A DNA stretch of 56,500 nt from the IMG/VR virus record IMGVR_UViG_3300035703_000116, positions 1-56,500 of that record; one strand, given 5' to 3'. Shown piece by piece: positions 10,537 to 36,226 of the stretch; the first letter of the stretch is position 1, and each line of letters starts with the position of its first letter. Below the pieces are notes generated by a model. It did not search any database. It was not told where the DNA came from and saw only the letters and a list, made by a program, of their open reading frames with translations. The stretch is from a virus. Its lineage: Duplodnaviria; Caudoviricetes. The position numbers and the translations under genes are program-made.

Positions 10537-10549
10537 GTGACTACAGCGA

Positions 10550-20022: not shown

Positions 20023-20658
20023 CTATTCATCAAAATCAGCCTCTTCTAATGCAACAAGTAACTGTTCAACACCTAATGCGCCGCTTTGTAAATTCTTGCC
20101 CACTTCAGCAATTTTTGCGGCGCTGTTAAGTATCGACGGGATGTCACGAATATCTATGCTGCGCTCATTTTCTAAATACTCGTCTAATGTTCTTTGAGAT
20201 AAGGCGGCTAACTTAGCTGCGTTAGCAGATAAGTTCCGCCCCAAGAATTCTTGCTGTAATCTATAAGCTTCTAAACGTTTTTTATGTTCAATCGCTCGTG
20301 AATCTTGTTCTAATTTAAGTTTCTGCTGCAACATATCAATGTCATAGTCGCTAGCTCTTTGTATCCAATTATTCTTTTTGCTAATTGCTAGCACTTTGTT
20401 ATCTTGTAAGTTAAATGTATTTGCAATGTATGTTATTGATCTTCCCGATCCACAATTCAAAAAAAACTTCAGCAATTCAAACTCTTTATCAGTTTCAGAA
20501 GTTGCCCCTCCTCCATTTTTCATATAACTTCTATTTGATAAAATGCGCGAATTCAGAATTGCGTCGGGGTCATTAAACGCGAACTGTTCACGTTCGTGTT
20601 GCGATTCTATAGAATTGTCGTTTTCATTGAAATTATCAGCGTCGAATAAATCAGACAT
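20023..20658 (-). CDS. Putative terminase small subunit / HTH protein
   Basis: GRSITYIA..SKKNNWIQRASDYD HTH followed by long helical region; upstream of terL on the same strand. Confidence 0.55.
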   Translation of the reverse strand: MSDLFDADNFNENDNSIESQHEREQFAFNDPDAILNSRILSNRSYMKNGGGATSETDKEFELLKFFLNCGSGRSITYIANTFNLQDNKVLAISKKNNWIQRASDYDIDMLQQKLKLEQDSRAIEHKKRLEAYRLQQEFLGRNLSANAAKLAALSQRTLDEYLENERSIDIRDIPSILNSAAKIAEVGKNLQSGALGVEQLLVALEEADFDE

Positions 20659-20895: not shown

Positions 20896-20923
20896 AAAAA
20901 CCCCTGCCGAACTAACGGCAAGG
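20896..20923 (-). terminator. Intrinsic terminator ending early array
   Basis: CCCTTGCCG-ttagtt-CGGCAGGGG-TTTTTT. Confidence 0.75.
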
Positions 20924-20954
20924 GCGAGTCGTTGCAAATTACTTTATCTATAAA

Positions 20955-21152
20955 TTAACGTTTGCAATCAAATAACTTTTCTCCTGCTGCAAAATTATCT
21001 AATTCAGCAACTCGCAAACATGCACGATACTCTAACTCTTTATTAAATTCAATAGTTGTAAAATCAACTGCTGATGCGAAAACTAAAGGGGTGCCAATAA
21101 AAATTGACGCGCAAGCACAAGCTTTTGCAAATGCACAAATGAAGCTATTCAT
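20955..21152 (-). CDS. Hypothetical membrane/secreted protein
   Basis: Hydrophobic N-terminus. Confidence 0.55.
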   Translation of the reverse strand: MNSFICAFAKACACASIFIGTPLVFASAVDFTTIEFNKELEYRACLRVAELDNFAAGEKLFDCKR

Positions 21153-21153
21153 G

Positions 21154-21414
21154 TCAGAAAACCTCCTTGACAAGATTCTTGAGTGCAGTGTTCAAATCTT
21201 TATCGTTCATGTATTTATACAGTACGTCGCAAATAAAATGAGGTTCGGGTAGAAAATGTTCTATCGCATAACCAAAGTCCCATCGAAAACGCTTTGCGTG
21301 ATCTTTTTCAAGTTTGCTTTTAGCATAATTTTCTGGAGTGAAATCAGGATAGTTTTCTTTAACTTGCTTTGCAGCTTGCAAAAGAATCTCGTAATGATCT
21401 TTTTGAATTTTCAT
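21154..21414 (-). CDS. Hypothetical early protein
   Basis: KRFRWD..LYKYMNDKDLNTALK. Confidence 0.7.
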   Translation of the reverse strand: MKIQKDHYEILLQAAKQVKENYPDFTPENYAKSKLEKDHAKRFRWDFGYAIEHFLPEPHFICDVLYKYMNDKDLNTALKNLVKEVF

Positions 21415-21420
21415 GATAAA

Positions 21421-21594
21421 TCAAGCGATGTTTAATTTAGATGCACGCTGCGCTAATTTTAACGCAGCGATTGTAGTGCTCCAGATCTCTAAAAAACGAT
21501 CATGTTGCGATGTAAAACAAAGCGTATAAGTTAAATCTTGCATCATTCGTTTTTGATTGCAACGTGCAATGTTAATCCAGTCTTGAGTGTTCAT
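21421..21594 (-). CDS. Hypothetical early protein
   Basis: 57 aa MNTQDWINIARCNQKRMMQD; fills the gap between neighbours. Confidence 0.55.
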   Translation of the reverse strand: MNTQDWINIARCNQKRMMQDLTYTLCFTSQHDRFLEIWSTTIAALKLAQRASKLNIA

Positions 21595-21620
21595 AACAAA
21601 AATGCGAGTGAGTGAAAAAA

Positions 21621-21821
21621 TCAGTTGTTGATGTAAGTGTAAAATGTCTCAATCATTTTGTATTCTTCATCAGTTAAAAAACAAATACCGAGACGCTTGC
21701 ACAAATAATCTGCGCAACTTGCAACGCTCTCGCCATCACAAATCATTGAAACGCAATCTTTGTTCAAGAAATAAAGAACGCGCATCTTGAGATCTTTTTG
21801 CGCAATTTCAAGTTTAGTCAT
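21621..21821 (-). CDS. Hypothetical early protein
   Basis: First ORF after promoter repeat 1. Confidence 0.6.
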   Translation of the reverse strand: MTKLEIAQKDLKMRVLYFLNKDCVSMICDGESVASCADYLCKRLGICFLTDEEYKMIETFYTYINN

Positions 21822-21886
21822 GAATTTTTTGTTGAAATAAATAAACAGCAAAACAACAAAGCACTTCTCTCTTTGCTGTTACAGCC

Positions 21887-21922
21887 ATTATAGCACGTAT
21901 CACATTGCGTGTCAAGCATTTA
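21887..21922 (-). promoter_or_regulatory. Early promoter repeat copy 1
   Basis: ATAAATGC-TTGACA-cgcaatgtgatacgtgc-TATAAT. Confidence 0.92.
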
Positions 21923-21934
21923 TCAATACGACTT

Positions 21935-22420
21935 TCAAAATAAATCATTGTACGCAACTAATTTATCATAGTAGAATCTATTGTTTGCATCTCTATAAAA
22001 CAGTCTCGGCGCATGATGCAACGAACCCAGGCAAATAACTATTTTCATCATTATGTTCTTTTTTCTATCTAGCAAACAAAACGACGTAACGCAAAACAAT
22101 CTTCTCAACGCATCTAAATACTCATTAACATACTCATGCAAATTATAAATCTTAAACTTGCTTTCATCAACAAACATCTCACGATTATCTTTCACGCATT
22201 GTCGAATCAACTCTTCAGATAAATCAACTGTATTCACAAAATTGTATTCATTCAAACAATCGTAGTTCTGCAAAGAAATGCACGGGAGCGATAAAGGATC
22301 TTCAGGGGCGAGAAATAAAAGTCTCTGTGTTTTGTATCTTTGCAAATAACGTTTTGCTTCGCTGAGTCTTCTTTTAACTTCAGCTGCAGTGAAATGATCT
22401 GTTGCAGAAACTTTGGGCAT
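21935..22420 (-). CDS. Hypothetical protein
   Basis: 161 aa ORF. Confidence 0.6.
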   Translation of the reverse strand: MPKVSATDHFTAAEVKRRLSEAKRYLQRYKTQRLLFLAPEDPLSLPCISLQNYDCLNEYNFVNTVDLSEELIRQCVKDNREMFVDESKFKIYNLHEYVNEYLDALRRLFCVTSFCLLDRKKNIMMKIVICLGSLHHAPRLFYRDANNRFYYDKLVAYNDLF

Positions 22421-22522
22421 TGCATGAATCTAGTACGAGAATCAATTTTCTCTCGCTCGCCAAGAATCGCCCCGAGAAGCCCACTGAATCCCCTGCCCGC
22501 ATGAATCCCCCCTGGGGCAAAT

Positions 22523-22556
22523 AAAAAGCCCCTTCCAGACGATTCTGGAGGGGGCT
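22523..22556 (-). terminator. Intrinsic terminator
   Basis: AGCCCCCTCCAGA-atcg-TCTGGAAGGGGCT-TTTT. Confidence 0.8.
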
Positions 22557-22605
22557 CACGAATCTCTCCGAGGGAGAGATCTATCGACAGGCGACAGAAA
22601 TCAAA

Positions 22606-22875
22606 TCATTTCAAATACTGAGGGCATTGTTTGATAACTGCAAGAAATGAATCAAGAACATCTCTGTCATACATCTTTCCGTTGTACTTAACTTTTATAG
22701 AAGTTCCCGTAGAAATGTAAGCTTCATCAATCGCAGCTTTTCTAGAATCTTCATCAGAAATTCCTAGCCCTCTGTATTCGCAATACTTTTCTGCATACAA
22801 ATTAGGGAGTACCTGCCCCGCATTAACAGCGCAGGGCGCAAGAATAAAAGCCAGCGTGAAAATGAGTTTTTTCAT
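22606..22875 (-). CDS. Hypothetical secreted protein
   Basis: Signal peptide MKKLIFTLAFILAPCAVNA. Confidence 0.7.
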   Translation of the reverse strand: MKKLIFTLAFILAPCAVNAGQVLPNLYAEKYCEYRGLGISDEDSRKAAIDEAYISTGTSIKVKYNGKMYDRDVLDSFLAVIKQCPQYLK

Positions 22876-22899
22876 GATTGTTGTTTGTTGAGAATGAAC

Positions 22900-23079
22900 C
22901 TAAACGATTTCGTTTACAGAAATAACCTCCTTCGTTGAAAAATGCTTTTTGAAACGATCAATCGCATCTTGTTTTGTTTTGCACTCAGAAATAACTGTCC
23001 ACCCAATAAATCCCCGAGCTTTTGTATCTTCGAATAGAATACGAAACTTTCTGTATTTAATTGTTTCGTAGCTGTGCAT
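22900..23079 (-). CDS. Hypothetical early protein
   Basis: TAATG overlap with upstream ORF. Confidence 0.55.
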   Translation of the reverse strand: MHSYETIKYRKFRILFEDTKARGFIGWTVISECKTKQDAIDRFKKHFSTKEVISVNEIV

Positions 23080-23273
23080 TAATTTTTGCATGAGTGCGCA
23101 GAAATCATAACATGCTCAACATTCCCCTCAATAGAAAGCAATGCGTCATCAATAGATTTAATGACTGCACTATTTTCTTTGTAGACTTGAGGGAATTTAA
23201 TTTGCATACGAATTAATTCTGCACGATAATCAACAAGCGCAGTGCGAATTGTTGTTGAAGAAAGAATTGTCAT
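23079..23273 (-). CDS. Hypothetical early protein
   Basis: Tightly packed ORF. Confidence 0.6.
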   Translation of the reverse strand: MTILSSTTIRTALVDYRAELIRMQIKFPQVYKENSAVIKSIDDALLSIEGNVEHVMISAHSCKN

Positions 23274-23280
23274 GATTAAA

Positions 23281-23589
23281 TTAAGCGAATGAATTTTCTA
23301 GTGAGAATTGAACAAGTCGTGTGCGATCATCTTTGTACGCTCGCACTAAATCAAGTATGTCATCAACTTGATCCTCTTGCGTATTAAAATCCTTGCATAC
23401 TAACTTTACAAGCGAAACAAAATGATCGTCTTTGTCAAATAAGATCTCTCTGTTTTCGTCAATTTGCACGAATAAATCAATTGCTTTTTGAGTAATCTGC
23501 ATTTGCGGATTCTCAAAAAAGCCAAGCGTAGATAATCTTTCAAGTGCTCCAAAAACCCAAAGGACTTGACATGTTTTCTTGTCAATCAT
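23281..23589 (-). CDS. Hypothetical early protein
   Basis: VLWVFGALERLSTLG. Confidence 0.65.
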   Translation of the reverse strand: MIDKKTCQVLWVFGALERLSTLGFFENPQMQITQKAIDLFVQIDENREILFDKDDHFVSLVKLVCKDFNTQEDQVDDILDLVRAYKDDRTRLVQFSLENSFA

Positions 23590-23720
23590 AAATCCTCCTC
23601 GTTGTCGTAAAAATAATCGTCGTCAATGAAAAATGAATCATCGCATGTATCACTCATGCAATCAGAATCAAGCCAGGGAAATAAAGCTGATTCTTGCGCA
23701 AATTGTTCCCAGTCAATCAT
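23586..23720 (-). CDS. Tiny acidic protein
   Basis: 44 aa MIDWEQFAQESALFPWLDSDCMSDTCDDSFFIDDDYFYDNEEDL; ATGA overlap with downstream ORF. Confidence 0.55.
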   Translation of the reverse strand: MIDWEQFAQESALFPWLDSDCMSDTCDDSFFIDDDYFYDNEEDL

Positions 23721-23723
23721 AAA

Positions 23724-24098
23724 TCAATCCTCAACACGTTCAGAAAAGGGTAGACGAGAAAGATTCCCGTGCTTTTTAATCGAATACAAAATGTATTCAC
23801 AAAACTCTTGTGCGTATTCTGCCTTGCAATAATCATCTCCTACGCGATACTGAACTTCTGTTTCGCAATCTGTCTCCTCTTGAAACTTTCTAACGTCACG
23901 AATCCAAACATAAATCTCCCACATCGGGCAGCACACCCCAAAGAAATCTTCGTGATCGCTTGTGTATTCACGAACAGAAAAAGAAACATACTGCTTCTCG
24001 TCTGAGAAATTAAATGTTTCGATCTCTTCAGAATCAATCCTGCCGCCGTGAAAACCTCGTGAGAAATCTTCCCAAGTGATCTGTTCTGTGATTTGCAT
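23724..24098 (-). CDS. Acidic hypothetical early protein
   Basis: 124 aa ORF. Confidence 0.65.
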   Translation of the reverse strand: MQITEQITWEDFSRGFHGGRIDSEEIETFNFSDEKQYVSFSVREYTSDHEDFFGVCCPMWEIYVWIRDVRKFQEETDCETEVQYRVGDDYCKAEYAQEFCEYILYSIKKHGNLSRLPFSERVED

Positions 24099-24148
24099 TT
24101 GTCTAGAAAAAGAAACGTGTGTCGATTAAAAATCAGTCGAGCATACAT

Positions 24149-24403
24149 TTATGTGTGCGAAGACCCATCAGGTGAGACACACCCATACATTTTGCAGTTA
24201 GGAAGAAATCCAAACAAATAAACTTCTTTGCTTTGATCGTTAATTTGCTCACACATAAACTTTGCATCTCTGAGCATATCTTTAACTTTAACGTCAAGAA
24301 TCAATGCCCAAGTCAGCAATTTGGATTTTTGCGCTTCAGTCAATAACTGAAACACGTCATAATCAATCTCGTCAGAAACAAAAAGAGGGGCGCGGAAATT
24401 CAT
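24149..24403 (-). CDS. Hypothetical early protein
   Basis: First ORF after promoter repeat 2. Confidence 0.65.
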   Translation of the reverse strand: MNFRAPLFVSDEIDYDVFQLLTEAQKSKLLTWALILDVKVKDMLRDAKFMCEQINDQSKEVYLFGFLPNCKMYGCVSPDGSSHT

Positions 24404-24480
24404 GATTGTCTGTGAAAAAGAAATGAACAAGAAATAAATGCGAGAGAAAAGAAACTACTTCCTCTCCCTCGCATGTTGCT

Positions 24481-24517
24481 ATTATAGCATGTCACACGTT
24501 ACGTGTCAAGCATTTAT
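24481..24517 (-). promoter_or_regulatory. Early promoter repeat copy 2
   Basis: ATAAATGC-TTGACA-cgtaacgtgtgacatgc-TATAAT. Confidence 0.92.
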
Positions 24518-24791
24518 CTGTCGTATCTTTGAATTTATCTTCTCGCTTCAGCAATTCAACTGCTGCGAGTTTTGCAATTACAAATAACTTAGCTTGCGTG
24601 AAAACAAACTGCTTTCTGTATTTACTCTTCAGATAACACAAAATGTTACCCGTGACAGAATCCCATTGCTTAATAGTTACATCCATAAATTGATCATGAT
24701 CTCTTGATTTACAAATGTGCTTGTAAGTTGTTGATGTTTTGACAATACGAATTACCTCGTCGTCAACAAATTTGTTTAAGCTGTCAGTCAT
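24492..24791 (-). CDS. Hypothetical early protein
   Basis: C-terminus reads into promoter repeat 2. Confidence 0.6.
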   Translation of the reverse strand: MTDSLNKFVDDEVIRIVKTSTTYKHICKSRDHDQFMDVTIKQWDSVTGNILCYLKSKYRKQFVFTQAKLFVIAKLAAVELLKREDKFKDTTDKCLTRNV

Positions 24792-24988
24792 TTTTCAAAG
24801 CAAATGTACTTGCCCCCAACAAATGCGTCTCGCAAGAAAACAAGGCGCTCCGGGGGGCAATTATGAAAAGCGTCATTGCTCAGCTTTTCATTAATAAATC
24901 TAGCACCAACAAACCCAATCGTTGTGCCCGCAAAAATTGCAGCAACTGCGTGAATGAACTCTTTGTGCTCAGAAAAGAAGTCTTTCAT
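24788..24988 (-). CDS. Small membrane protein
   Basis: Single hydrophobic helix. Confidence 0.6.
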   Translation of the reverse strand: MKDFFSEHKEFIHAVAAIFAGTTIGFVGARFINEKLSNDAFHNCPPERLVFLRDAFVGGKYICFEK

Positions 24989-24991
24989 GAT

Positions 24992-25279
24992 TCAATCAAT
25001 GTGTTTGATGTAAAATCCTGCGGATTCCCAGGAAATAACCGAGTCGGGCGGATTGAAATCAGTTTTGATACTTGCAAAAAACTCTCCCTCCAATCCATGA
25101 ATTAAAGGGAGATCAACTTCCACCTCGCCATCAAAATAATCTTTCACCCACTGAATCACTTGAGTTTCTAAATCAAGAATGTCATCATCCTTGATTTCCT
25201 TGAAAAACTCTTCTCCTGATCTACATTCATAAATGTAGAGATAGCACTCGAATGGCGCAGATTTGCAAAGTTCAGTCAT
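24992..25279 (-). CDS. Acidic hypothetical early protein
   Basis: 95 aa ORF. Confidence 0.6.
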   Translation of the reverse strand: MTELCKSAPFECYLYIYECRSGEEFFKEIKDDDILDLETQVIQWVKDYFDGEVEVDLPLIHGLEGEFFASIKTDFNPPDSVISWESAGFYIKHID

Positions 25280-25299
25280 TTTGAAATTAAACGAGTGAA

Positions 25300-25674
25300 T
25301 TAAATGTAACCAGCGTCTTGGATGCCCGGCTCATCATAAAACCAGCTAACTGACGCATCTTCGTATTTTTCACGAAGTTTTTCACAAATACCGCAAGGCG
25401 GTGCCCATGCAGTCATAAATTCAATTTGCAAATACTCATCATGATCTTCAACAAAAGAAACATCTGCTGCACAAATGTCCCACTTTGTCCCCCAATTATT
25501 TACGCGCCATGAATACCAGCCGGGCGTAATTGAATCGCCCTGCGGCAACTCTTCTTCTGAAGGTTGAGGGATCAATACATTAAATGGATGATCTTGAGAA
25601 AATAACTCTTTAATCTCTTTGATCTGATCTGCGTCAGCAGAAATCGAAACGCGATTTTCGCACCAGTTAGGCAT
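25300..25674 (-). CDS. DUF1281/YubB-like ferredoxin-fold protein
   Basis: MPNWCEN, WRVNNWGTKWD, FMTAWAPP, YDEPG. Confidence 0.8.
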   Translation of the reverse strand: MPNWCENRVSISADADQIKEIKELFSQDHPFNVLIPQPSEEELPQGDSITPGWYSWRVNNWGTKWDICAADVSFVEDHDEYLQIEFMTAWAPPCGICEKLREKYEDASVSWFYDEPGIQDAGYI

Positions 25675-25704
25675 GACAAAAACTCCGTGTTGAACTAAAT
25701 AAAA

Positions 25705-26136
25705 TCAGAGACAGCAAACGTAATCAATAACTTCTTGCGGCAATTCTTCTTTCAGCCACGCAGTTCCGTATTTGTAACCGTCATCAACTAACGCATCAAA
25801 CCGCTGCAAATACTCACATGCGTCGATGTAGAAATTATCAAACTCAACACCCGAAGCTTTTGCTTGTCGCAAGATTTCTTCTTGCACAAATGTTCCAGCG
25901 CGCATGTCATTTAAGTGCCAACGCTTCCAAATTTCATAAAGTCGCGCAGGAATGATTTCCTTCACTTCATCATGAATCTGCCCCCAGCCAAGCAAATTCT
26001 TCTCTGATTTGAGAAGTTTTTTGCCCGTGAAATAAGTGCCAACAATGCTCAGAGTCTTGAAAGACTTTTTCTCTTTGATTGAAATTTCAAGCGTGCAAGA
26101 GAATTTTTCTCCTGCAAAGAAAACAGTTTTTAGCAT
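25705..26136 (-). CDS. Hypothetical early protein
   Basis: WKRWHLNDMRAG...GYKYGTAWLKEELP. Confidence 0.75.
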   Translation of the reverse strand: MLKTVFFAGEKFSCTLEISIKEKKSFKTLSIVGTYFTGKKLLKSEKNLLGWGQIHDEVKEIIPARLYEIWKRWHLNDMRAGTFVQEEILRQAKASGVEFDNFYIDACEYLQRFDALVDDGYKYGTAWLKEELPQEVIDYVCCL

Positions 26137-26202
26137 GAGATTTTTTGATGAAAAAACAAATACAAGCGAAAAAGAATTGCCCTCTCTCGCTTGTATGACT
26201 AC

Positions 26203-26239
26203 ATTATAGCACGTTACATGCTACGTGTCAAGCATTTAT
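26203..26239 (-). promoter_or_regulatory. Early promoter repeat copy 3
   Basis: ATAAATGC-TTGACA-cgtagcatgtaacgtgc-TATAAT. Confidence 0.93.
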
Positions 26240-26742
26240 TTATCGTCTTTTGCAAAATACCCATCCCACCAGAGTTTTGATTCTTCTATTTGCGCAAGCA
26301 TTTTGTCGCAAAACTTTGCAGCATCTTCTTCTGTTTCATAAATAAATGGATCGTGATCAAATTCACCAGCACCGTAATAACTAACAAGCGTCAAATAAGC
26401 ACTTGCGCATTTAACAACATCTTGCGATGTCAGTAAATTTACAAATTCATCAAGCTCCCATCCAGTGAAATCAGCAACATTCTCTAGAAAATCACTAAAC
26501 CATTCTTTGTGTCTAGGGTGAAATCTATTTGTTCCAACGCCCAGGAATTCTCCGCTGTCATTAACAATTTTGTGACAGCGCCCTAATTCAACTTCACTAC
26601 GCCTTTTGAAATCCTCATCGTAAATTAAAACAATGGGATTGTAAATTCCTCGGCGATCAATGCAAACAAATGCGCCTCCGTATTGAAAAGGATCGGCGTC
26701 ACCAAGATTTGCAATGCAGAAATAGCTAGGCTGCGCTGTCAT
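26236..26742 (-). CDS. Acidic hypothetical early protein
   Basis: NLGDADPFQYGGAFV; ends DDK* within repeat 3. Confidence 0.72.
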   Translation of the reverse strand: MTAQPSYFCIANLGDADPFQYGGAFVCIDRRGIYNPIVLIYDEDFKRRSEVELGRCHKIVNDSGEFLGVGTNRFHPRHKEWFSDFLENVADFTGWELDEFVNLLTSQDVVKCASAYLTLVSYYGAGEFDHDPFIYETEEDAAKFCDKMLAQIEESKLWWDGYFAKDDK

Positions 26743-26978
26743 GATTTGATGTCAGAGAATTTTGTGATTTCCAAGTCAGACTTGGGCAAAGAAATTAGCG
26801 CTTGCTCAAGAACAATTTTTGCAAACTGCTCTTCAATTTTTTCCGAGTCGATAATTTTCCCGTCTTGCGTTCTTTTCTCAATGAGAAAATAATCATCAAT
26901 GCGACGAAAATGAACAATGACAAGTTGTTCGTTGCGACGATCAAAAAGTTTGAATTCGTAAATCTGTTTAATGTTCAT
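26739..26978 (-). CDS. Hypothetical early protein
   Basis: ATGA overlap with downstream ORF. Confidence 0.6.
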   Translation of the reverse strand: MNIKQIYEFKLFDRRNEQLVIVHFRRIDDYFLIEKRTQDGKIIDSEKIEEQFAKIVLEQALISLPKSDLEITKFSDIKS

Positions 26979-26981
26979 GAA

Positions 26982-27272
26982 TCAATCCTCGTCCTCGAAT
27001 GAAAATCCTTCGGGCACTTCCCATAGATCGCCGTCTTGATGCAAACCCCACTTCACGCCATCACTAATCCATTCGGCATCACGAAGAATTTCATCCCAAG
27101 AATCCCAATACAATTCATGATCTGGTCCAGCTTGACAAATAAGAACGGGCTCGTAGGGAATGTGCATTTCCTCAGCAATTTGCGGGTCAATGTGACTGCA
27201 ATAAATCTGAGGGATGTAAATGCCGTTTGTGTCAGAAACAACAAGAATCGGATCTAAATTTTTGCTGGACAT
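26982..27272 (-). CDS. Acidic hypothetical early protein
   Basis: GIYIPQ..GPDHELYWDSWDEIL..LHQDGDLW. Confidence 0.75.
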   Translation of the reverse strand: MSSKNLDPILVVSDTNGIYIPQIYCSHIDPQIAEEMHIPYEPVLICQAGPDHELYWDSWDEILRDAEWISDGVKWGLHQDGDLWEVPEGFSFEDED

Positions 27273-27341
27273 GAGATTTTCTGAGAAGCAAAAGAAACAA
27301 ATGCGACAAAAGAATGATTACTTCTCTCGTCGCATGTGTGT

Positions 27342-27378
27342 ATTATAGCACGTTACATGCTACGTGTCAAGCATTTAT
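27342..27378 (-). promoter_or_regulatory. Early promoter repeat copy 4 (core identical to copy 3)
   Basis: ATAAATGC-TTGACA-cgtagcatgtaacgtgc-TATAAT. Confidence 0.93.
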
Positions 27379-27578
27379 TTGTCATCTTTTACAAAGAAAT
27401 GAGTTCCGTTCAGCGTTACGTTATCTCGATGCGTTAGTCCAATGCAATAATGATTGTCCAAACATTTAATTAAATACTGTCCTATAGAATCTTTGATTAC
27501 AATGTATGATTCAGAGTCGCAATAAACAATCTTGCCTGAATCAACTAAATCGCGAATTTGCTGTGCATTCATAATCAA
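27375..27578 (-). CDS. Hypothetical early protein
   Basis: YIVIKDSIGQYLIKC..IGLTHRD; ends DDK* within repeat 4. Confidence 0.7.
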   Translation of the reverse strand: MIMNAQQIRDLVDSGKIVYCDSESYIVIKDSIGQYLIKCLDNHYCIGLTHRDNVTLNGTHFFVKDDK

Positions 27579-27823
27579 TCGTAATAAGCATAGCGATCGT
27601 TATACATTTCGCACGCAAATTTTTCTTCGTTGCTAATTTCTTCCTCGCCGTAATAACCCTCTAAGAAATCTGGGTCAAGCTCATTTTCTTCAAGCATGTC
27701 ACGAATTTGATCGTGACTCATCCATTTAAGACAAGCGGCTAACAAATTACTTTCACTCGTTCGCTCTTCATCAATCAAATCGTATGCGTACTGAAGTGGG
27801 TTGCTGCTGAAAAGATCTTCCAT
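27575..27823 (-). CDS. Acidic hypothetical early protein
   Basis: LLAACLKWMSHDQIRDMLEENEL. Confidence 0.7.
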   Translation of the reverse strand: MEDLFSSNPLQYAYDLIDEERTSESNLLAACLKWMSHDQIRDMLEENELDPDFLEGYYGEEEISNEEKFACEMYNDRYAYYD

Positions 27824-27843
27824 TGTAGTAAAAGTAAAAAAAC

Positions 27844-27887
27844 AAATCAAAACGAAATCAAAATGAAATCAAAATGAAATCAGAATG
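27844..27887. repeat. 11-bp tandem repeat x4
   Basis: AAATCAAAACG AAATCAAAATG AAATCAAAATG AAATCAGAATG. Confidence 0.85.
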
Positions 27888-28065
27888 GGTTGTCCCAGGA
27901 ATTTGCCTGACGATCAGTAATCTCGCCATCACGATGCAACTGATCTATGAATTGCACAAATGCTTGGCGCTTTGCGCAAATGTCGTCAGCATAATTTGGG
28001 GCGCGAAACTTAATGTGATACTCCCATTCATCCTTGAAAATAGCAATCGCTTCTTGTTTTGTCAT
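27880..28065 (-). CDS. Hypothetical early protein
   Basis: MTKQEAIAIFK..FIDQLHRDGEITDRQANSWDNPF. Confidence 0.72.
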   Translation of the reverse strand: MTKQEAIAIFKDEWEYHIKFRAPNYADDICAKRQAFVQFIDQLHRDGEITDRQANSWDNPF

Positions 28066-28132
28066 GTTTTTTTGAGAAAGAAATGAAACAGAAATGCGAG
28101 AGAGAAAATAATTCCTCGTCTCGCATGTTGCT

Positions 28133-28169
28133 ATTATAGCACGTAATAGCTTACTTGTCAAGCATTTAT
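28133..28169 (-). promoter_or_regulatory. Early promoter repeat copy 5
   Basis: ATAAATGC-TTGACA-agtaagctattacgtgc-TATAAT. Confidence 0.92.
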
Positions 28170-28184
28170 TTATCTAGCAAATAA

Positions 28185-28463
28185 TCAGAGCTGACAATTC
28201 TCATCAATTGCCCAAAGATACAAACGCATCTCTGAGACCTCTAAATCCAGATCACAATACTCATCACGCTCAATAAACAGCCAGAAATAACTTCCTGCGC
28301 CATCATTGTTTTGCATAATCCAATGCCCACCACGATAAACAAAAATCTTTTCTGGTGGAGACTGCTCAAGCTGAAAAATCTCTACAGCATCAAAATCAAT
28401 CTTTTTGAATTCTTCGACAGAAACCTCTTTGCGAGAGTTCTGCCAGTCACGAAACTTTGACAT
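28185..28463 (-). CDS. Hypothetical early protein
   Basis: Single gene between repeats 6 and 5. Confidence 0.68.
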   Translation of the reverse strand: MSKFRDWQNSRKEVSVEEFKKIDFDAVEIFQLEQSPPEKIFVYRGGHWIMQNNDGAGSYFWLFIERDEYCDLDLEVSEMRLYLWAIDENCQL

Positions 28464-28520
28464 GTTCTGAAATAAATAAATTGACAACAGCAAGAAACTT
28501 TGCTTTTGCTGTATGACTAG

Positions 28521-28557
28521 ATTATAGCACGTATGACGTTACGTGTCAAGCATTTAT
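28521..28557 (-). promoter_or_regulatory. Early promoter repeat copy 6
   Basis: ATAAATGC-TTGACA-cgtaacgtcatacgtgc-TATAAT. Confidence 0.92.
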
Positions 28558-28814
28558 CTAGCTATGTTTTTAGTGAAAATTTTACTTTCACAAACATCGC
28601 ACTTCAAAAATCTGTCATTTTGATTCACGCAGTCTGTTTTAATAATCCAGGGCGCAAGTAATGCAAATCTTTCTCTAAAAATATGACAACAATGACTGCA
28701 GGCAACGAAATTTCCTTGCGTCAAAACATATCTTGTTCTCGCATGTTTCTTTTGTGTTAAATACTGCGACGCAAGAATGTCTGCGGTGCGCAATGAAAAA
28801 CTCTTTGAACTCAT
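28554..28814 (-). CDS. Hypothetical Zn-finger protein
   Basis: CSHC...CDVC. Confidence 0.55.
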   Translation of the reverse strand: MSSKSFSLRTADILASQYLTQKKHARTRYVLTQGNFVACSHCCHIFRERFALLAPWIIKTDCVNQNDRFLKCDVCESKIFTKNIAR

Positions 28815-28934
28815 CAAGCTATACAAGAAATGAATAATCGCTTAGCCCGCTCAGAATCCTCTGTGAGCCTCAGAAATCCCCTCGGCGTGGGATAAATCCT
28901 TCGAGGGGAGACAGTCTCGCTGCGGGCGCAGGAA

Positions 28935-29558
28935 TCAGGGGCTCAGCGGTAATAAAGCACCCCACTGCTCACCCATCGCCTCAGCCACTCCCAAATAAGT
29001 TCGACTGCGATTTTTTTGTCTTTCCGGGCCGGGCGGTTCATAATGAACGCGATCAGTCTCTGAAGGATGCAGAAATAAAATCTGCTCCTCTACGTTATTT
29101 GTTACTTTAAGTTTGGGAAGATTCTTCAACCAAAAGCACGTTTGCTTTCGCTCTGGGTGCCCAAAGAAATACGGCTGAATCTTTTGTGAATAGTTTGGAT
29201 TGATCAATCTCTGCCTTGCGTGTGAGTGCATGATTGGGTTTTCAATACAGATTCTTGGGCACGGGTGTGCAAGAAATAAATTAAAAAAATCAACTGCGTT
29301 AAGCATTTGATCCCATCGCCCAGGAGTTTTTCTCAACCATTGAACACCAGACTGCGCGAGATAAGTGCAAGGCGGATGAGAAATAACAAGATCCCAGTCT
29401 TCAGAAAGAATTTCCAGCACATCTCCCTGATAATGTTTGCTGTTTTCTGTTGTTGGGAGCTCTGTTTCAAGAAGATCGCAGGAGACTGCGTAATGCCCTC
29501 TCTTTGCAAATGCTTCGCGCACCCTTCCTGAAAATTCACAGGCGACAAGAACTTTCAT
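28935..29558 (-). CDS. Short DNA cytosine methyltransferase-like protein
   Basis: MKVLVACEFSG, CDL, WDLVISHPPCTYL (PC catalytic motif), IENP, RSRTYLGVAEAMGEQWG. Confidence 0.8.
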   Translation of the reverse strand: MKVLVACEFSGRVREAFAKRGHYAVSCDLLETELPTTENSKHYQGDVLEILSEDWDLVISHPPCTYLAQSGVQWLRKTPGRWDQMLNAVDFFNLFLAHPCPRICIENPIMHSHARQRLINPNYSQKIQPYFFGHPERKQTCFWLKNLPKLKVTNNVEEQILFLHPSETDRVHYEPPGPERQKNRSRTYLGVAEAMGEQWGALLPLSP

Positions 29559-29734
29559 AATGTTTTTTTGATGCGAGCATGTAAATCTTTGTAGATCACT
29601 TTAGCCTCTTTCCATGCACGCTGATTTTCTTCTTTGTCACCGTTTTTCACAAGAGGGACAAAGTTTTCTCCGTAGTTGTGCATGAAAGAAATAGCACTGA
29701 GTAGTGCTATTTTCTCCTTCTTACTTAGGCTCAT
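29555..29734 (-). CDS. Hypothetical protein
   Basis: 59 aa MSLSKKEKIALLSAISFMHNYG; ATGA overlap with the MTase-like gene. Confidence 0.5.
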   Translation of the reverse strand: MSLSKKEKIALLSAISFMHNYGENFVPLVKNGDKEENQRAWKEAKVIYKDLHARIKKTL

Positions 29735-30044
29735 TTCTCAACTGCTCAATCAACATTTCACATTCTTTAGTTTTTTGCTGAGACACAGTTTCACAAACAA
29801 TAAGAAGCTCCTCAACTGTTAGATGTTTTAGAAAGTTTGACTGCATGTCAGCAAATGGGGTGGCAGCTCCATAATCCTCCTCCTGTAGGCACATGCGAAA
29901 CAAATGAATCGCTGCCATCAAAAATTCTGATTCAAACAAATAAGCATACAGCAATTCCTCTGGGCTGAGTTTTGACGCATCTCGTTCACTGTTTTTCCAT
30001 GAACAATAATTGTCAAGCAGTTGATCAAATGTAATCACTTTCAT
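29721..30044 (-). CDS. Hypothetical protein
   Basis: TAATG overlap with upstream ORF. Confidence 0.6.
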   Translation of the reverse strand: MKVITFDQLLDNYCSWKNSERDASKLSPEELLYAYLFESEFLMAAIHLFRMCLQEEDYGAATPFADMQSNFLKHLTVEELLIVCETVSQQKTKECEMLIEQLRNEPK

Positions 30045-30592
30045 TATCTTTTGAGCTCCTGTTTTTGCATAAAAGCTGAATCACAAATCTCTCGCATTGT
30101 GACAGGAGCTTCTCCGCCAGAATTATCATAAAGATACTGCGGAGTGGGATCAATAGTTCCGAACTCGATTGAAAACTCCCTGCCTTCGTTTGTCATGTAT
30201 TCAGCGAGTGCAAATAATTCATCGGGATCAGTATCTTCTTCTGTCGCGCCGGTCTTTTCTTTTAGCACCCAATGAACGTCGTGCGCATGACTAAAATTGA
30301 CCTGATAATAAACAGGCTGAGCTGCGTCAGATTTTGAAACAATCTGTGTCGCATCAATAAAGATTTCACATTCATCAGGGGAATCACCCCCATGAATTTG
30401 TGCGATCACCTGCAACACATCTTTCATGCCGCCCTCGCCATGCTCTTGAGAAACATTTTTCTTGAAGATTTTTTCCTCTTGACTGTAACGAACTTTAGTA
30501 CGCTGAACAATCCAAGTAGCAGTGTTTGACATTTCTTTATCGTAGTAATCTGGTGGATCAAGTGGGCGAGGATCGTAAATAAAATCAGACAT
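30044..30592 (-). CDS. Acidic hypothetical protein
   Basis: DPTPQYLYDNSGGEAPVTMRE C-terminus. Confidence 0.68.
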   Translation of the reverse strand: MSDFIYDPRPLDPPDYYDKEMSNTATWIVQRTKVRYSQEEKIFKKNVSQEHGEGGMKDVLQVIAQIHGGDSPDECEIFIDATQIVSKSDAAQPVYYQVNFSHAHDVHWVLKEKTGATEEDTDPDELFALAEYMTNEGREFSIEFGTIDPTPQYLYDNSGGEAPVTMREICDSAFMQKQELKR

Positions 30593-30788
30593 TTTGAAGT
30601 TCAGCAATGCGAGCCTGTGCAAATCGAGAACCAGGACCGTACTGTTCGTAAAGTTCCGGCCAAGCATTCAAAATCTTTGCTTTGTTTGTAAGATCAGCAG
30701 CGCAGTAAGCATCTGCGAGCTTTTTGCAAAATCCGCCGCCGTAACGACGCATCGTTTCCACAAAAATGTAATGGTCGTCTGGAGTCAT
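30585..30788 (-). CDS. Hypothetical early protein
   Basis: MRRYGGGFCKKLADAYCAADLTNKAKILNAWPEL. Confidence 0.75.
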   Translation of the reverse strand: MTPDDHYIFVETMRRYGGGFCKKLADAYCAADLTNKAKILNAWPELYEQYGPGSRFAQARIAELQNV

Positions 30789-30834
30789 GTTTCTGAAAGA
30801 TAAAAGAAGCACAGCTTTTGTGCTGTACGATTAC

Positions 30835-30871
30835 ATTGTACTACATGCTCGACGCATTGTCAAGCATTTAT
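30835..30871 (-). promoter_or_regulatory. Early promoter repeat copy 7
   Basis: ATAAATGC-TTGACA-atgcgtcgagcatgtag-TACAAT. Confidence 0.85.
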
Positions 30872-31170
30872 TTGTCGTCGTCAAATTTGTAATTTTTTAG
30901 CCCCGTCTCAAGAGATCGACGCAGATTGCCAACAATTTTTTCAATCAAAGAAAGTCCCCTCAAAACTCTAAATAGAAAGTCAGGGCTGATTCTATCGTCT
31001 CGATGAATCAACTTTTCAGTTGTCGTAAATCTGCTTGAGCAATTTTTACAGACGCACCTCCTCTTGATTTCATTTGACTGGGGGCGAGATTCGATAACTT
31101 TTCTTTCCGTGCACTTACAAAAAGGACACTGCACGCCCCCTTTCCTCGCATTTAAGTTTTTATCTTTCAT
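30868..31170 (-). CDS. NrdR-like Zn-ribbon protein (no ATP cone)
   Basis: CPFC..KVIESR..IKRRCVCKNCSSRFTTTE; ends DDK* within repeat 7. Confidence 0.75.
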   Translation of the reverse strand: MKDKNLNARKGGVQCPFCKCTERKVIESRPQSNEIKRRCVCKNCSSRFTTTEKLIHRDDRISPDFLFRVLRGLSLIEKIVGNLRRSLETGLKNYKFDDDK

Positions 31171-31571
31171 GCCAAATAAATCCTCCCATCATCATCAATG
31201 AGAGCAGTAAATTCAGGTTGAGACTGTGCGGCGTCAGTAAGAATTTGTGAAACCTCAGAACTCCAGTCGCCATCCCAAAATCCCGCGCCATGTCTGTTAC
31301 GAGTTAGCACGTAGTCATATTCAGTTTGATTTAATGCGGGCTGCTGGACATCATAAAAATCATCAATGCAATTCCACTTGTCTCCAATTGCTGCAGTGAT
31401 CTTTTCTTCAACGATTGAAATAAACTGCTGATACTCGGTGTAGAGCTTTTTGAGCGATTCTTCTTCAAAGTTTGCGATTGAATAATTCTCGTCAAGCGGA
31501 TCGCCGTATTCGTCGGAATTGGTGTATAAAACAACTTCAGCGAGCGCAGTTAGAGTTGGGTTCATTTCCAT
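31167..31571 (-). CDS. Acidic hypothetical early protein
   Basis: DYVLTRNRHGAGFWDGDW. Confidence 0.75.
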   Translation of the reverse strand: MEMNPTLTALAEVVLYTNSDEYGDPLDENYSIANFEEESLKKLYTEYQQFISIVEEKITAAIGDKWNCIDDFYDVQQPALNQTEYDYVLTRNRHGAGFWDGDWSSEVSQILTDAAQSQPEFTALIDDDGRIYLA

Positions 31572-31580
31572 GATTGATTC

Positions 31581-31895
31581 TCAGTAAACATTACCCAGCT
31601 TGAATTCATTGAGCGCAGACTGAGCAAGCTCGACGGCGACAAATGAAATAATCTCATTCTTTTTCTCAAAAACGAAATGCCTGTCTTCTGAGTATTTTGC
31701 CCAAAACAATGGATACCAGAGATGAACGAAGGTAGTTGCGCGAGAAACAGCGCTGGGCATGTAATCAAAATTGCCCTCTTGAGATTCTGCGTAAATCTTG
31801 CACAAATCTTTTAAGAGTTGATTGAACGTGCGCCCATCGTGATTCTCAACAAACAGCAATAAATGCTGAATGTCTTGCATGTGTCTGAGTTTCAT
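31581..31895 (-). CDS. Hypothetical early protein
   Basis: First ORF after repeat 8. Confidence 0.62.
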   Translation of the reverse strand: MKLRHMQDIQHLLLFVENHDGRTFNQLLKDLCKIYAESQEGNFDYMPSAVSRATTFVHLWYPLFWAKYSEDRHFVFEKKNEIISFVAVELAQSALNEFKLGNVY

Positions 31896-31943
31896 GAATC
31901 CACTGAAAAAGAAAAAGACCACTCTGTGTTGAGCGGTCTTTGT

Positions 31944-31980
31944 ATTGTAGCGCGTTACTCGTTACTTGTCAAGTATTTAT
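31944..31980 (-). promoter_or_regulatory. Early promoter repeat copy 8
   Basis: ATAAATAC-TTGACA-agtaacgagtaacgcgc-TACAAT. Confidence 0.85.
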
Positions 31981-32280
31981 TTCTTGAGCTTTATCACAAA
32001 TCTCTTTGTATGTGACAGCACGCATGTCGTCGTCAAATCCCTCTGCTTCAAGAATTTTCTCTCGCAGCTCAGAAAGAAGCTCGACGTGTTTCATGATTAC
32101 ATCAGCCTTGAAGGCAAGTGCTGAGTAAATCTCTCGACTAACCCACGGCGCAAAAAATGCAGAAATCTGCGCCCTTCTTTTTTCTTTTTTTAGTGCTTTG
32201 ACGCAATCCTCCATTTGCATAAATAAACCCTGCATCAAAGCATTAAGCTCGTGCAAATACAATTCAGACTGCAGTTTCAT
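31969..32280 (-). CDS. Hypothetical protein
   Basis: Stop codon lies in the -35 box of repeat 8. Confidence 0.6.
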   Translation of the reverse strand: MKLQSELYLHELNALMQGLFMQMEDCVKALKKEKRRAQISAFFAPWVSREIYSALAFKADVIMKHVELLSELREKILEAEGFDDDMRAVTYKEICDKAQEINT

Positions 32281-32282
32281 AA

Positions 32283-32741
32283 TTAGTTCAGAAATTGATT
32301 AGCTTTTCCATTGAAAACCAAATCGACGACCTCCTCAAAGGTGATCGGTATTACACAGTAATCAAAATCTCCATCACCCTTTATGATAAAGAAAAACTTA
32401 GAACTTTCAAGGATAATTTTGCGTTGAATCTCGCCAAGTCTATCATGCTTGAACATTCGCATCAGATTGACCTCTACTGCAGTGAGTTCATATTCTCCTT
32501 CCTCCATTCTTTCTTTTTCGTAAAGTTTACAGTACATTGGTAGAAATTGAGATCCAAACTCGTGAATCCACCAAAGGCGAACATCACCAGGTCGTGAACG
32601 ATTTACCAATTTTCTATCCCACACAGAAACATCCGTGCTATTGTGTTTAACGACATTCTCCGCCTCATAGCACATCCACTCGCATAGCGTTAAATTCCGC
32701 AAGTTGCGTTTAACGGCTTGTTGTCTCGTGAGGATTTGCAC
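32283..32741 (-). CDS. Hypothetical protein
   Basis: GTG start assumed downstream of repeat 9. Confidence 0.6.
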   Translation of the reverse strand: MQILTRQQAVKRNLRNLTLCEWMCYEAENVVKHNSTDVSVWDRKLVNRSRPGDVRLWWIHEFGSQFLPMYCKLYEKERMEEGEYELTAVEVNLMRMFKHDRLGEIQRKIILESSKFFFIIKGDGDFDYCVIPITFEEVVDLVFNGKANQFLN

Positions 32742-32767
32742 TTCTGTTTGTTTTATGGGACAAAGGT

Positions 32768-32803
32768 AGTATAGCATTTTACAGAAAAGGTGTCAAGCAT
32801 TTA
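32768..32803 (-). promoter_or_regulatory. Early promoter repeat copy 9 (divergent)
   Basis: TAAATGC-TTGACA-ccttttctgtaaaatgc-TATACT. Confidence 0.8.
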
Positions 32804-33661
32804 AGTTGTACGTTTTTGATTATTTGCTGATAAACCACAAACAACCTCCTCTGGGGTATTTCCGCAAAGAACAATCTTGTAATAAAGAAAATGGTAGTCC
32901 AATTTGTATTCTTTAGCGAGATCAACAAGAGTTATGCTTTTATTGTAAAATTTAATATAAATTGTATTTCTTCTTCTCATCATATTCTCCCCTCTGGTTG
33001 CCCAGCCACAAAGGCCCGGGCCGTAAACCATGTTGTCTTTTTGAAAAATTTCCTTGTCAAGCTGATGATCGGCGGAAGGGCGAGGGCCAAGATCAAAATA
33101 AAAGTTCTGAAATGATCCTCCTTTATCTGGATTCCATCTATCGCAAACAGTTACACCTCTGGCTCCGTAATGAGCGTAACCTGCATTTGTCGGATCAAAA
33201 CACCTATTTAACATATGCCTCCACGCCTGATATTCTCTTGACTTCGACATCCCATGATCTGTTTTTAATTTGTTTGAGCAATCTAAACAGCAAACAGACT
33301 TGCCATGAACCAATCCAATTAGTTCAAGATTTTTTTCTATGCCACAAGAGCAACGAGCTAGTACCCGTCTAACCGGCTTGCCGGAGCGGACATTTGCCTC
33401 TACCTCGCAAATAATAGTCCAACTGCCAAATTTTTTACCAGGAAAAACATTAATACTCCTACGCTTTTTGCCACTGCATTCTTTGCAGCATGTTGATGTT
33501 TTGCTTTTTAACGCAACCTTTAAAACAAACGATTCATTTCCACATGAGCATCTGACAGGAACATGGAATACGCTACTTAATGAACTTTTCTTAAACTCGT
33601 CACCAATTACTATCCATTCACCAAATTTTTGGCCAATGGACAGTGGTATTCTTTTAGGCAT
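32801..33661 (-). CDS. HNH homing endonuclease with Cys-rich repeats
   Basis: Two GxKFGxW..RCSCG modules, then WRHMLNRC, YGARGVTVCDRW, HQLDK..YGPGLCGWAT; same family as 4513-5463. Confidence 0.85.
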   Translation of the reverse strand: MPKRIPLSIGQKFGEWIVIGDEFKKSSLSSVFHVPVRCSCGNESFVLKVALKSKTSTCCKECSGKKRRSINVFPGKKFGSWTIICEVEANVRSGKPVRRVLARCSCGIEKNLELIGLVHGKSVCCLDCSNKLKTDHGMSKSREYQAWRHMLNRCFDPTNAGYAHYGARGVTVCDRWNPDKGGSFQNFYFDLGPRPSADHQLDKEIFQKDNMVYGPGLCGWATRGENMMRRRNTIYIKFYNKSITLVDLAKEYKLDYHFLYYKIVLCGNTPEEVVCGLSANNQKRTT

Positions 33662-35954: not shown

Positions 35955-36226
35955 CAAACGAAGAAGAATACAATCCGAGAAACCGTGAAAAATCAAAACA
36001 AGCAAAATATGGCTTGTTTTGGTGCCGTGGATGTGACACGCAGCTTGTGTGCGATGGCGAAAAGTGTTCTGTTTGTGGACTAAAGAACAATCCCTCAAAA
36101 ATTAGATACAGCTAGCAAGCATGTATCAAGTCTGTTTGCCCGTCCGTCGCAGGTCGGGCTTTTTTGTGCCTAGCCGAACTACCGTGTGCCAGTTGTACTA
36201 CTTGGACTAGGCGTGCGGAAAAATGC

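Follow-up and report, generated by a model that had tools for sequence, protein, structure and literature searches.

The array described here consists of nine copies of a module that combines a consensus-type promoter and, in all copies except one, a hairpin. It lies on the minus strand of an uncultured tailed phage genome, the IMG/VR virus record IMGVR_UViG_3300035703_000116, and the window, meaning the whole stretch of DNA that was analysed, is this entire record (56.5 kb, linear, estimated to be 82% complete). The closest described counterparts are the early-promoter elements named PeSLs, reported from the T4-type myoviruses RB49/phi1, T4/PST, and KVP40/nt-1 (Arbiol et al. 2010, PMC2839356; Comeau et al. 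2014, PMC4122927). In these papers, a PeSL combines a strong promoter of the sigma-70 kind, A/T-rich in its upstream part, with a terminating stem-loop, and a Shine-Dalgarno (SD) sequence and an ATG follow (PMC2839356; PMC4122927). The stem-loop is mostly found between the -35 and -10 boxes or over the -10 box, where it ends the transcripts arriving from upstream while staying outside the promoter's own RNA (PMC2839356). The elements lie on either side of ORFans, and indels and mini-circles arise when two of them recombine (PMC2839356; PMC4122927).

As far as these descriptions go, the modules of the array have much in common with PeSLs. Both are repeats of ~100 nt with a strong sigma-70-like promoter, an A/T-rich upstream part, and a stem-loop, both sit between small ORFans in a variable early region, and neither involves an integrase. 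In both, a relative without a given cassette holds a single chimeric element in its place, as is the case for ORF192 of RB49 versus phi1. The likeness to PeSLs in make-up and setting, which a preliminary description of the locus made from the sequence alone had pointed out, is thus supported. The differences concern the layout, the host genome, and the behavior of the repeats. In contrast to the published elements, the hairpin of the array lies 3' of the -10 box, from the predicted +1 onwards and within the module's own mRNA, with only a weak 5-7-bp dyad in the spacer, and the modules have no SD at their 3' end. The phage, with a genome of ~57-65 kb, HK97-type head genes, ERF, exonuclease, RusA, and its own sigma factor, is not a T4-type myovirus, and its elements are not enriched for breakpoints. 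A literature search for "PeSL" returned only T4-type or cyanomyovirus cases, and no siphovirus case appeared under early promoters, stem-loops, and recombination. The array is best read as a PeSL-like set of modules for expression and insulation, found outside the T4 group, which act as occasional recombination substrates and not as a dedicated cassette-shuffling system.

Other phage systems share part of this design. The morons of lambdoid phages are said to be genes with their own promoter and terminator inserted between two genes. The units of the array would likewise be autonomous promoter-gene-terminator units with accessory genes, and the sixth module (P6) together with its gene 20 fits this picture; however, they stand in tandem under one repeated control element, and the putative terminator of each unit lies in the transcript of the next. 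In SPO1 and T5, clusters of strong early promoters drive small host-takeover genes. SPP1 has five sigma-A early units bracketed by terminators (PMC6316719). The array shares with these three phages the consensus host-type promoters, the short polycistronic early units, and stem-loops between units, which in the array are terminator-like, whereas near-identical 100-nt repeats with a hairpin at +1 are, as far as the reports on them go, a trait of the array only. The sections on early promoters in the SPP1 account describe no recombination role for them (PMC6316719). Integrons, finally, resemble the array in being rows of cassettes of unrelated genes, promoterless or short, with repeats at the junctions. 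Contrary to integrons, the array shows no integrase match or attC-type sites, each block has its own promoter, the junction repeats are the promoters themselves, and exchange at the junctions looks like plain homologous recombination.

The promoter-hairpin module

The nine modules, P1 to P9, and two related features are the following.

32742..32810, minus strand: P9 module; TAAATGC box, TTGACA, 17-nt spacer, TATACT with TG; no hairpin; short leader to a GTG at 32741
31896..31986, minus strand: P8 module; TACAAT without TG; 11-bp hairpin, then TTCTTTTTC; ATG at 31895
30789..30877, minus strand: P7 module; TACAAT and a divergent spacer; 7-10-bp hairpin, then TTCTTTTATC; ATG at 30788
28464..28563, minus strand: P6 module; perfect hexamers with TG; weaker hairpin; single-gene cassette at 28185-28463
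28066..28175, minus strand: P5 module; perfect hexamers with TG; hairpin and U-rich leader; ATG at 28065
27273..27384, minus strand: P4 module; core equal to that of P3 over 39 nt; 14-bp hairpin at 27301-27335, then TTGTTTCTTT; ATG at 27272
26137..26245, minus strand: P3 module; spacer converted to the P4 sequence; 16-17-bp hairpin at 26160-26196, then TTGTTTTTTC; ATG at 26136
24404..24523, minus strand: P2 module; 16-17-bp hairpin at 24438-24474, then TTATTTCTTG; ATG at 24403; upstream stop codon in the spacer
21822..21929, minus strand: P1 module; hairpin, then TTTATTTATTT; ATG at 21821
27824..27881, minus strand: U-rich leader-like intergenic stretch of 11-nt tandem units, with no promoter
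20900..20925, minus strand: GC-rich, terminator-like hairpin of the canonical intrinsic type with TTTTTATT, which closes the array before the terS-like gene

All nine minus-strand copies of TAAATRC-TTGACA-N17-TAYAMT claimed by the preliminary description were recovered where it had placed them, with the low coordinates of the -10 boxes at 21887, 24481, 26203, 27342, 28133, 28521, 30835, 31944, and 32768. The looser pattern TTGACA-N16-18-TAYAMT has ten matches in the window (shuffled sequences give a mean of 0.07 and a maximum of 1), the tenth being a plus-strand match at 35261 unrelated to the array. When the upstream box is included, as in TAAATRCTTGACA, the window holds nine reverse-strand and no forward matches, and the reversed-pattern control gave zero on each of the two strands. 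A profile of the nine cores likewise returns exactly nine matches in the window, at 28-45 bits, with the runner-up at 7.3 bits (E 0.98). The claim of six perfect promoters with an extended TG holds as well, since these copies match the hexamers at 12/12 positions and carry the TG, and so does the identity of the P3 and P4 cores, which extends over 39 nt. The remaining copies are P9, whose -10 box is TATACT with TG, and P7 and P8, with TACAAT and no TG. The GTG start behind P9 was placed by comparison with 152-aa orthologues.

The same array, in the same order, recurs in 23 or more related contigs of viral or metagenomic origin, at ~70-90% identity. These relatives were found by a scan for the promoter pattern followed by BLAST comparison, and include A (65 kb, ~88% identical), B (62 kb, ~70% identical), C (59 kb), D (14 kb), and E (18 kb), together with ~19 further contigs from a metagenome scan. 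For the comparison of gene order, forward-strand ORFs were clustered into families and each contig was encoded as a string of promoters and families. All relatives carry the same promoter family on one strand, and the order of cassettes and promoters is collinear in all of them, while gene content and, occasionally, the presence of a promoter vary. The sole translocation seen, that of families 27 and 29 in B, has no adjoining promoter. The lineage, with genomes of ~57-65 kb, occurs in freshwater, wastewater, and aquaculture metagenomes; a megablast of 21000-33500 against phage records gave no match. Relative L202 holds two extra promoter modules after family 26 (12815-13620 of the oriented contig), each with a gene unseen in the window (families 315 and 316), and these look like promoter-flanked single-gene units.

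The conservation of the module was profiled, and its leaders folded, on 72 unique elements from the window and the relatives, a set that includes orthologues and is therefore not made of independent sequences. The ten bases 5' of the -35 box, A-R-A-T-A-A-A-T-G-C (the box ATAAATGC; RATAAATGC), reach 1.5-2 bits per position, on par with the hexamers. The spacer is conserved in its arms and varies at its centre: s2-s5 (GTAA) hold ~1 bit, s6-s11 0.3-0.7 bits, s12 (A) 1.6 bits, and s15-s17 (TGC) 1.3-1.5 bits. This agrees with the earlier remark that the similarity goes beyond the needs of sigma70. The seventh nucleotide past the -10 box is a purine (A in 52 and G in 20 elements), followed by T. A purine at the seventh base after the -10 box corresponds to the canonical +1 distance of sigma-70 promoters, and this base is the predicted +1 and, in the commonest geometry, the one with which the hairpin opens.

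The element also contains stop codons. In seven of the nine window copies the stop codon of the preceding ORF falls within it, five times as the TAA of TAAATGC, once as the TGA of TTGACA (the gene upstream of P8), and once as a TGA in the spacer. Of 70 unique elements, 43 have all three frames closed within the promoter, whereas 8% of equally long random windows do so.

The box itself has a wider distribution. TAAATGC directly 5' of TTGACA-N17-TAYAAT is also found in more than 100 unrelated viral contigs, where the leaders bear an SD and no hairpin. Among 185,579 species genomes, the TAAATGC-promoter pattern occurs in 53 stretches, mostly as single matches in Clostridia-type metagenome-assembled genomes; one Peptococcaceae contig has two matches, and none of the 53 stretches is labelled as a cyanobacterium. 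The TAAATGC-TTGACA box may thus be a widespread strong-promoter feature that is not private to this phage. The idea of a general hairpin behind any TAAATGC-TTGACA promoter was rejected, as 101 promoters of other viral contigs gave a mean minimum free energy of -6.9 versus -6.1 for shuffles; this set included the three promoters of L132, which was later recognised as a relative.

Downstream of the -10 box, the module continues with a 10-17-bp hairpin that starts ~7 nt further on, at the predicted +1, then a U-rich tract and an SD-less leader. Purines prevail in the 5' arm of the hairpin and pyrimidines in its 3' arm. The hairpin is present in eight of the nine window copies, with a dG of -9.8 to -22.3 kcal/mol and a T-rich tail behind it, whereas P9 has neither a hairpin (dG -1.9) nor a long leader. 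Seven of the 72 leaders are of the P9 type (mean dG -5.2, z +0.3) and were excluded from the hairpin statistics. In the 65 leaders kept, the mean dG is -17.6 kcal/mol and the mean z against shuffles is -4.1; the stem begins at nt 7 after the -10 box in 25, at nt 1-4 in 34, and at nt 9 in six, and ends at ~+40. The tail after the stem has at least six T in ten bases in 57 of the 65. The sense fold is more stable than the antisense fold in 54, and G-U pairs make up 141 of 1008 pairs.

Covariation was assessed in 18 of the 65 leaders, chosen for a common 16-bp geometry that allows a gap-free alignment. Here 95.8% of the cells are paired, versus 86.0% in shuffles, with none of 500 shuffles equalling the real value; 8 of the 16 pairs show changes on both sides, and sliding the partner by 1-3 columns lowers the pairing to 45-70%. 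Taken together, the pairing, the both-sided changes, and the sense-strand bias indicate that selection for the hairpin acts on the sense strand, whether in the form of RNA or of sense single-stranded DNA. In a scan against the terminator consensus, the hairpins of P2, P3, P4, P7, and P8 are terminator-like, with stems rich in A-U and G-U pairs and interrupted U runs. No Rfam family reached its gathering score anywhere in the window.

The leader after the U tract is conserved and unstructured, of the type UUUCAGAAAA, and leads to the ATG. No SD-like motif was found in the eight hairpin leaders, all of which have a start codon. The preliminary description was right about a hairpin and a U-rich, SD-less leader in eight of the copies, but the missing SD does not define the cassettes, since SD-less starts are common genome-wide: SD-like motifs precede 4/11 late genes, 4/13 rightward-operon genes, and 5/33 array genes. 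They are scarce in all gene classes (13 of the 57 genes examined), and many starts have an ATC-ATG or TC-ATG context. A leaderless mini-ORF from an AUG at +1 of P2, P4, and P5 (24, 5, and more than 30 codons) was considered and dropped because P1 and P3 have no AUG there, so that it is not conserved.

Recombination between copies and gene turnover

Promoter copies do recombine with each other. Relative C is devoid of the one-gene P6 cassette and has a single promoter at that place, whose flank, -35 box, and spacer are of the P6 type (15/17 positions of the spacer) and whose hairpin and leader are of the P5 type, which sets the crossover in the shared -10 region. L208 also lacks the P6 cassette, and its chimera joins a P6-type flank to a P5-type spacer (14/17) and leader, with the crossover at or upstream of the -35 box. 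As the cores of these two empty sites differ, and the matching donor is gone from each, the best reading is that of two independent exchanges between P6 and P5. Spacers have been exchanged as well. The P3 spacer of the window is identical to that of P4 at 17/17 positions, while the P3 of C, D, L208, L158, L203, L167, and L221 has another spacer and that of A a third type; the flanks and the hairpin of the window's P3 are still of the P3 type, so that this is a short gene conversion to the P4 sequence. In L201 and L232 it is P4 that carries a P2-type spacer (16/17).

Sequencing runs were compared as assembled Logan contigs, a form of data in which rare junctions, circles, and RNA ends are not visible. 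In the possible source run, the contigs break exactly at the identical P3 and P4 cores, and the stretch between them (26212-27371) forms a separate contig with a depth of 22.3, versus 31 and 26 for its flanks. This is a weak hint, compatible with a sub-population that lacks the cassette. Of the 33 contig joints, 15 were listed and none of these links two promoter copies, although such contigs are uninformative on rare recombinants.

The preliminary description had also expected the gains and losses of genes among relatives to break at the repeats, and this expectation was not borne out. BLAST matches between the window and 23 relatives were chained, and indels or replacements of at least 40 nt within the array were collected, giving 36 distinct events and 72 breakpoints. 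Counting the elements with a 10-nt margin and the other gene boundaries up to 25 nt away, half of the 72 breakpoints (36) are at gene boundaries outside the elements, and the nine elements and the interior of ORFs account for 18 each, many of those within ORFs coming from the divergent relative B. The elements span 982 of 11,930 nt, and hence hold 25% of the breakpoints in ~8-10% of the bases; by a rough estimate, however, ordinary gene junctions have at least as many breakpoints per nucleotide. The successor changes, given as minimum events (for every family, one fewer than its distinct successors) for ORFs of at least 50 aa with the near-duplicate L152 excluded, amount to 18 over 13 promoter junctions (1.38 each) versus 43 over 37 others (1.16 each). 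None of the 36 events replaced a segment with an element at both ends.

Within the elements, the breakpoints cluster at two edges. One is the upstream edge, where families 119 and 121 were inserted next to P5 and gene 23 was lost next to P4. The other is the ATG: behind P1, P2, and P3, the first gene has been replaced from precisely where the leader ends; the genes behind P1 are the most variable among relatives. Such clustering is expected from crossovers inside the shared element as well as from selection for intact signals. The promoters themselves are at times lost: L203 and one contig from run X2 have deletions of P4 and genes 22-23 that end in the U-rich P4 leader and in 27824-27881, P8 and gene 11 are lost in L208, and P7 and gene 14 are replaced by a mobile HNH gene in C. 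Repeat-mediated recombination is thus real but minor, and the repeats are mostly not the seams at which genes are turned over.

Proposed function and alternative readings

The modules, of ~90-120 nt each, are best explained as expression and insulation units for early accessory genes, a reading to which we assign a probability of roughly 0.7. Judging from its match to the consensus, the promoter would be read by the primary-sigma holoenzyme of the host and would restart strong transcription at every cassette. The hairpin and the U tract would attenuate or terminate the transcripts coming from the upstream cassette, and they are the only candidate for this task: with the stop codon of the preceding gene inside the promoter, the cassettes have no further terminator between them. 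In RNAs that start at the module, the hairpin may act as a flush 5'-terminal stem-loop that shields the mRNA from 5'-end-dependent decay. Flush hairpins at the 5' terminus reportedly protect mRNAs from 5'-end-dependent decay of the RNase E type. As direct repeats of ~100 nt, the modules occasionally undergo homologous recombination with one another, which deletes a cassette or converts a promoter; this may rely on the phage ERF, exonuclease, and RusA or on host functions, with the Erf-like protein as the candidate catalyst. Recombination between modules is a side effect or has at most a secondary role, as most of the turnover takes place at ordinary gene junctions.

Several points weigh against this explanation. 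A hairpin and U tract at ~+1 to +50 would be expected to stop the RNAs of the module itself too, and the explanation offers no way in which this is avoided or put to use. Whereas the terminator at 20900-20925 is GC-rich, the long stems of the modules abound in A-U and G-U pairs, and P9, which has no hairpin, implies that a 5' cap hairpin is not obligatory for expression. RNAalifold predicted no pairs on a MAFFT alignment of all 65 leaders, a result attributed to the misalignment of paralogues with different stem lengths. The conservation of ATAAATGC and of the spacer arms is beyond what sigma-70 contacts alone account for. Finally, it is from the sequence that we infer the use and timing of the promoters, the +1 position, termination, mRNA stabilisation, and the enzymes recombining the repeats; the contigs of the one RNA run cover 24 of 30 bins and, as assembled contigs, give no indication of transcription or of RNA starts and ends.

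The preliminary description had proposed an integrase-free cassette system, in which the repeats would be the principal sites for the excision of genes, perhaps as circles, and for their insertion and shuffling. Part of this proposal stands, since copies recombine and no integrase match was found. The two independent chimeric promoters at precise losses of the P6 cassette, the spacer exchange among paralogous promoters, and the promoter-flanked single-gene units (gene 20 in the window, family 315 in L202, and family 23 in D) are what such a system would leave behind. The same can be said of the families 119 and 121 insertions adjoining the upstream edge of P5, the first-gene replacements that start at the leader end of P1, P2, and P3, the stop codons built into the element, the ERF, exonuclease, and RusA-like genes, and, as a weak hint, the lower depth between P3 and P4. 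A system dedicated to shuffling is nonetheless unlikely. Only a quarter of the breakpoints fall in elements, promoter junctions change their successor little more often than others, no replaced segment has an element at both ends, and promoters are themselves lost. Moreover, the cassette order is the same in all relatives, the lone translocation being away from promoters. A related proposal takes the module as an "expression socket", a lineage-independent unit of ~100 nt that joins stop codons for any upstream gene, a maximal host promoter, a hairpin that would both stop the arriving transcript and cap the new mRNA at +1, and an SD-free leader, and through which ERF, exonuclease, and RusA would move or delete cassettes. 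This is a tentative idea that we hold to be possible but doubtful; if true, accessory genes would be handled here much as in integrons, but with no integrase and in a phage far removed from the T4-like ones.

The conservation of the spacer brings in another candidate function, that of an operator. The spacer dyad (CACGT-N8-ACGTG, core GTA-N6-TAC) could be bound by a dimeric phage or host regulator that turns the whole array on or off at once, with ATAAATGC as a second contact, which would be compatible with the expression and insulation explanation. The conserved arms around a variable centre suit such a site, Watson-Crick symmetry is 50% in the dyad register versus 17-28% when shifted, and the dyad is found in seven of the nine promoters. 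At up to three mismatches the window has only three other sites, all with exactly three (shuffles give a mean of 4.6). Yet the CA of the -35 box and the TG of the extended -10 are by default complementary to each other, the conversion of one copy by another would likewise keep the spacers alike, the dyads of relative B are looser, and no stand-alone or autoregulatory copy of the dyad exists in the window. Nor is the one obvious candidate regulator a conserved partner. This protein of 134 aa with a LexA DNA-binding domain (36804-37208) was examined as the array repressor on account of the dyad geometry and rejected in that role, since its gene lies in a 1.28-kb insertion (35911-37195) missing in A, C, D, and E, and none of five relatives' records, two of them at least 90% complete, had a match. 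An array-wide operator is, on balance, rather improbable. Still less credit is given to the possibility that the hairpin and U tract are a promoter-proximal terminator, so that mostly RNAs of ~45-50 nt would be made until a phage antiterminator acts and expression would be delayed, or that the hairpin RNAs are the product. The terminator-like geometry kept in eight of the nine modules and in the relatives, the selection at the RNA level, and the very high initiation implied by the consensus promoters speak for it. On the other side, the stems have little strength for their number of base pairs and the U tracts are broken up, paralogous modules have different hairpin sequences and hence no RNA product in common, no Rfam match was obtained, and no known antiterminator family was detected in the family scans of the phage ORFs. 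This makes it a very unlikely alternative to the expression and insulation reading.

Array genes, genome setting, and significance

The array extends over 20955-32810 and, between P9 and the 20900-20925 terminator, contains 37 ORF families of at least 44 aa in cassettes of one to ten genes, close to the figure of about 35 small genes given earlier. Family scans covered 35-42 array ORFs per library (Pfam, PHROG, NCBIfam), and most of these ORFs had no match in any of them. The features of the array genes and of the rest of the window are the following.

20955..32741, minus strand: nine cassettes with 1-10 genes each, ~37 small ORFs (44-207 aa) altogether, very few of them with a family match
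25300-25674: array ORF with a DUF1281_C domain
28935-29558: array ORF matching phrog_757, with the label "DNA methyltransferase"
30868-31170: array ORF with an NrdR-like zinc ribbon
6068-16885, minus strand: virion protein, tail terminator, head-tail adaptor, major head (HK97-type), scaffold, portal, and terL
20023-20658, minus strand: terS-like gene
32801-33661, minus strand: HNH endonuclease gene
37717-38634, plus strand: O-like initiator
38676-40094, plus strand: DnaB-like helicase
43212-43982, plus strand: Erf-like single-strand annealing protein (phrog_155, E 2.4e-19)
46880-47641, plus strand: exonuclease
47641-47997, plus strand: SSB-like protein
~48345-52799, plus strand: nucleotide-metabolism genes
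49506-50045, plus strand: RusA-like resolvase
53150-54106, plus strand: sigma factor of the sigma-70 family
54113-55183, minus strand: endolysin gene

Five further array ORFs match PHROGs of unknown function. The family matches thus speak neither for nor against the host-takeover or anti-defence role suggested earlier for the array genes. A rightward operon runs on the plus strand from ~34990 and holds the ERF and exonuclease genes that had been suggested to serve the array; both genes are indeed present, along with the SSB-like and RusA-like ones, and may take part in recombining the repeats. No integrase match was obtained among the 82 ORFs scanned, which in a record that is 82% complete does not prove its absence, and no tRNAs were found in the window.

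The best phage matches of the sigma factor are cyanobacterial siphoviruses, at 38-44% identity, and this is all that hints at a cyanobacterial host. The protein has regions 1.2, 2, and 3 and no region 4 match at E <=0.001. The terL protein matches enterobacterial siphoviruses and the cyanophages KBS-S-2A and S-H1 equally (~38-40%), the major head protein matches Firmicutes phages (~38%), and the nearest isolates are below 45% amino-acid identity.

Other features of the window lie apart from the array. Between a gene of unknown function encoding 216 aa and the terS-like region, positions 18632-19089 hold AT-rich iteron-like repeats of ~17 bp with a period of 17 and at least ten copies, alignable in relative A, which could be an origin or a packaging site. 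An open-ended ORF of at least 1459 aa (1-4380, minus strand) lies at the tail end of the structural block and has no PHROG or Pfam match. Three HNH genes were found, at 4513-5463 on the plus strand and at 32801-33661 and 36227-36805 on the minus strand. The family of the second is mobile, being 5' of P9 in the window and in A, between families 13 and 15 in C, and absent in D, E, and B. The insertion 35911-37195 also carries an HNH gene.

The array brings the PeSL principle to an unrelated and uncultured phage lineage of ~60 kb, in a different layout with the hairpin in the mRNA at +1, no SD, and stop codons built into the element. The at least 23 related contigs represent a natural experiment that gauges recombination through repeats, found to be real but minor, and the array cautions against equating promoter repeats with cassette mobility. 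The modules offer, at the same time, a compact and testable design in which termination, re-initiation, and 5'-end protection would be coupled.

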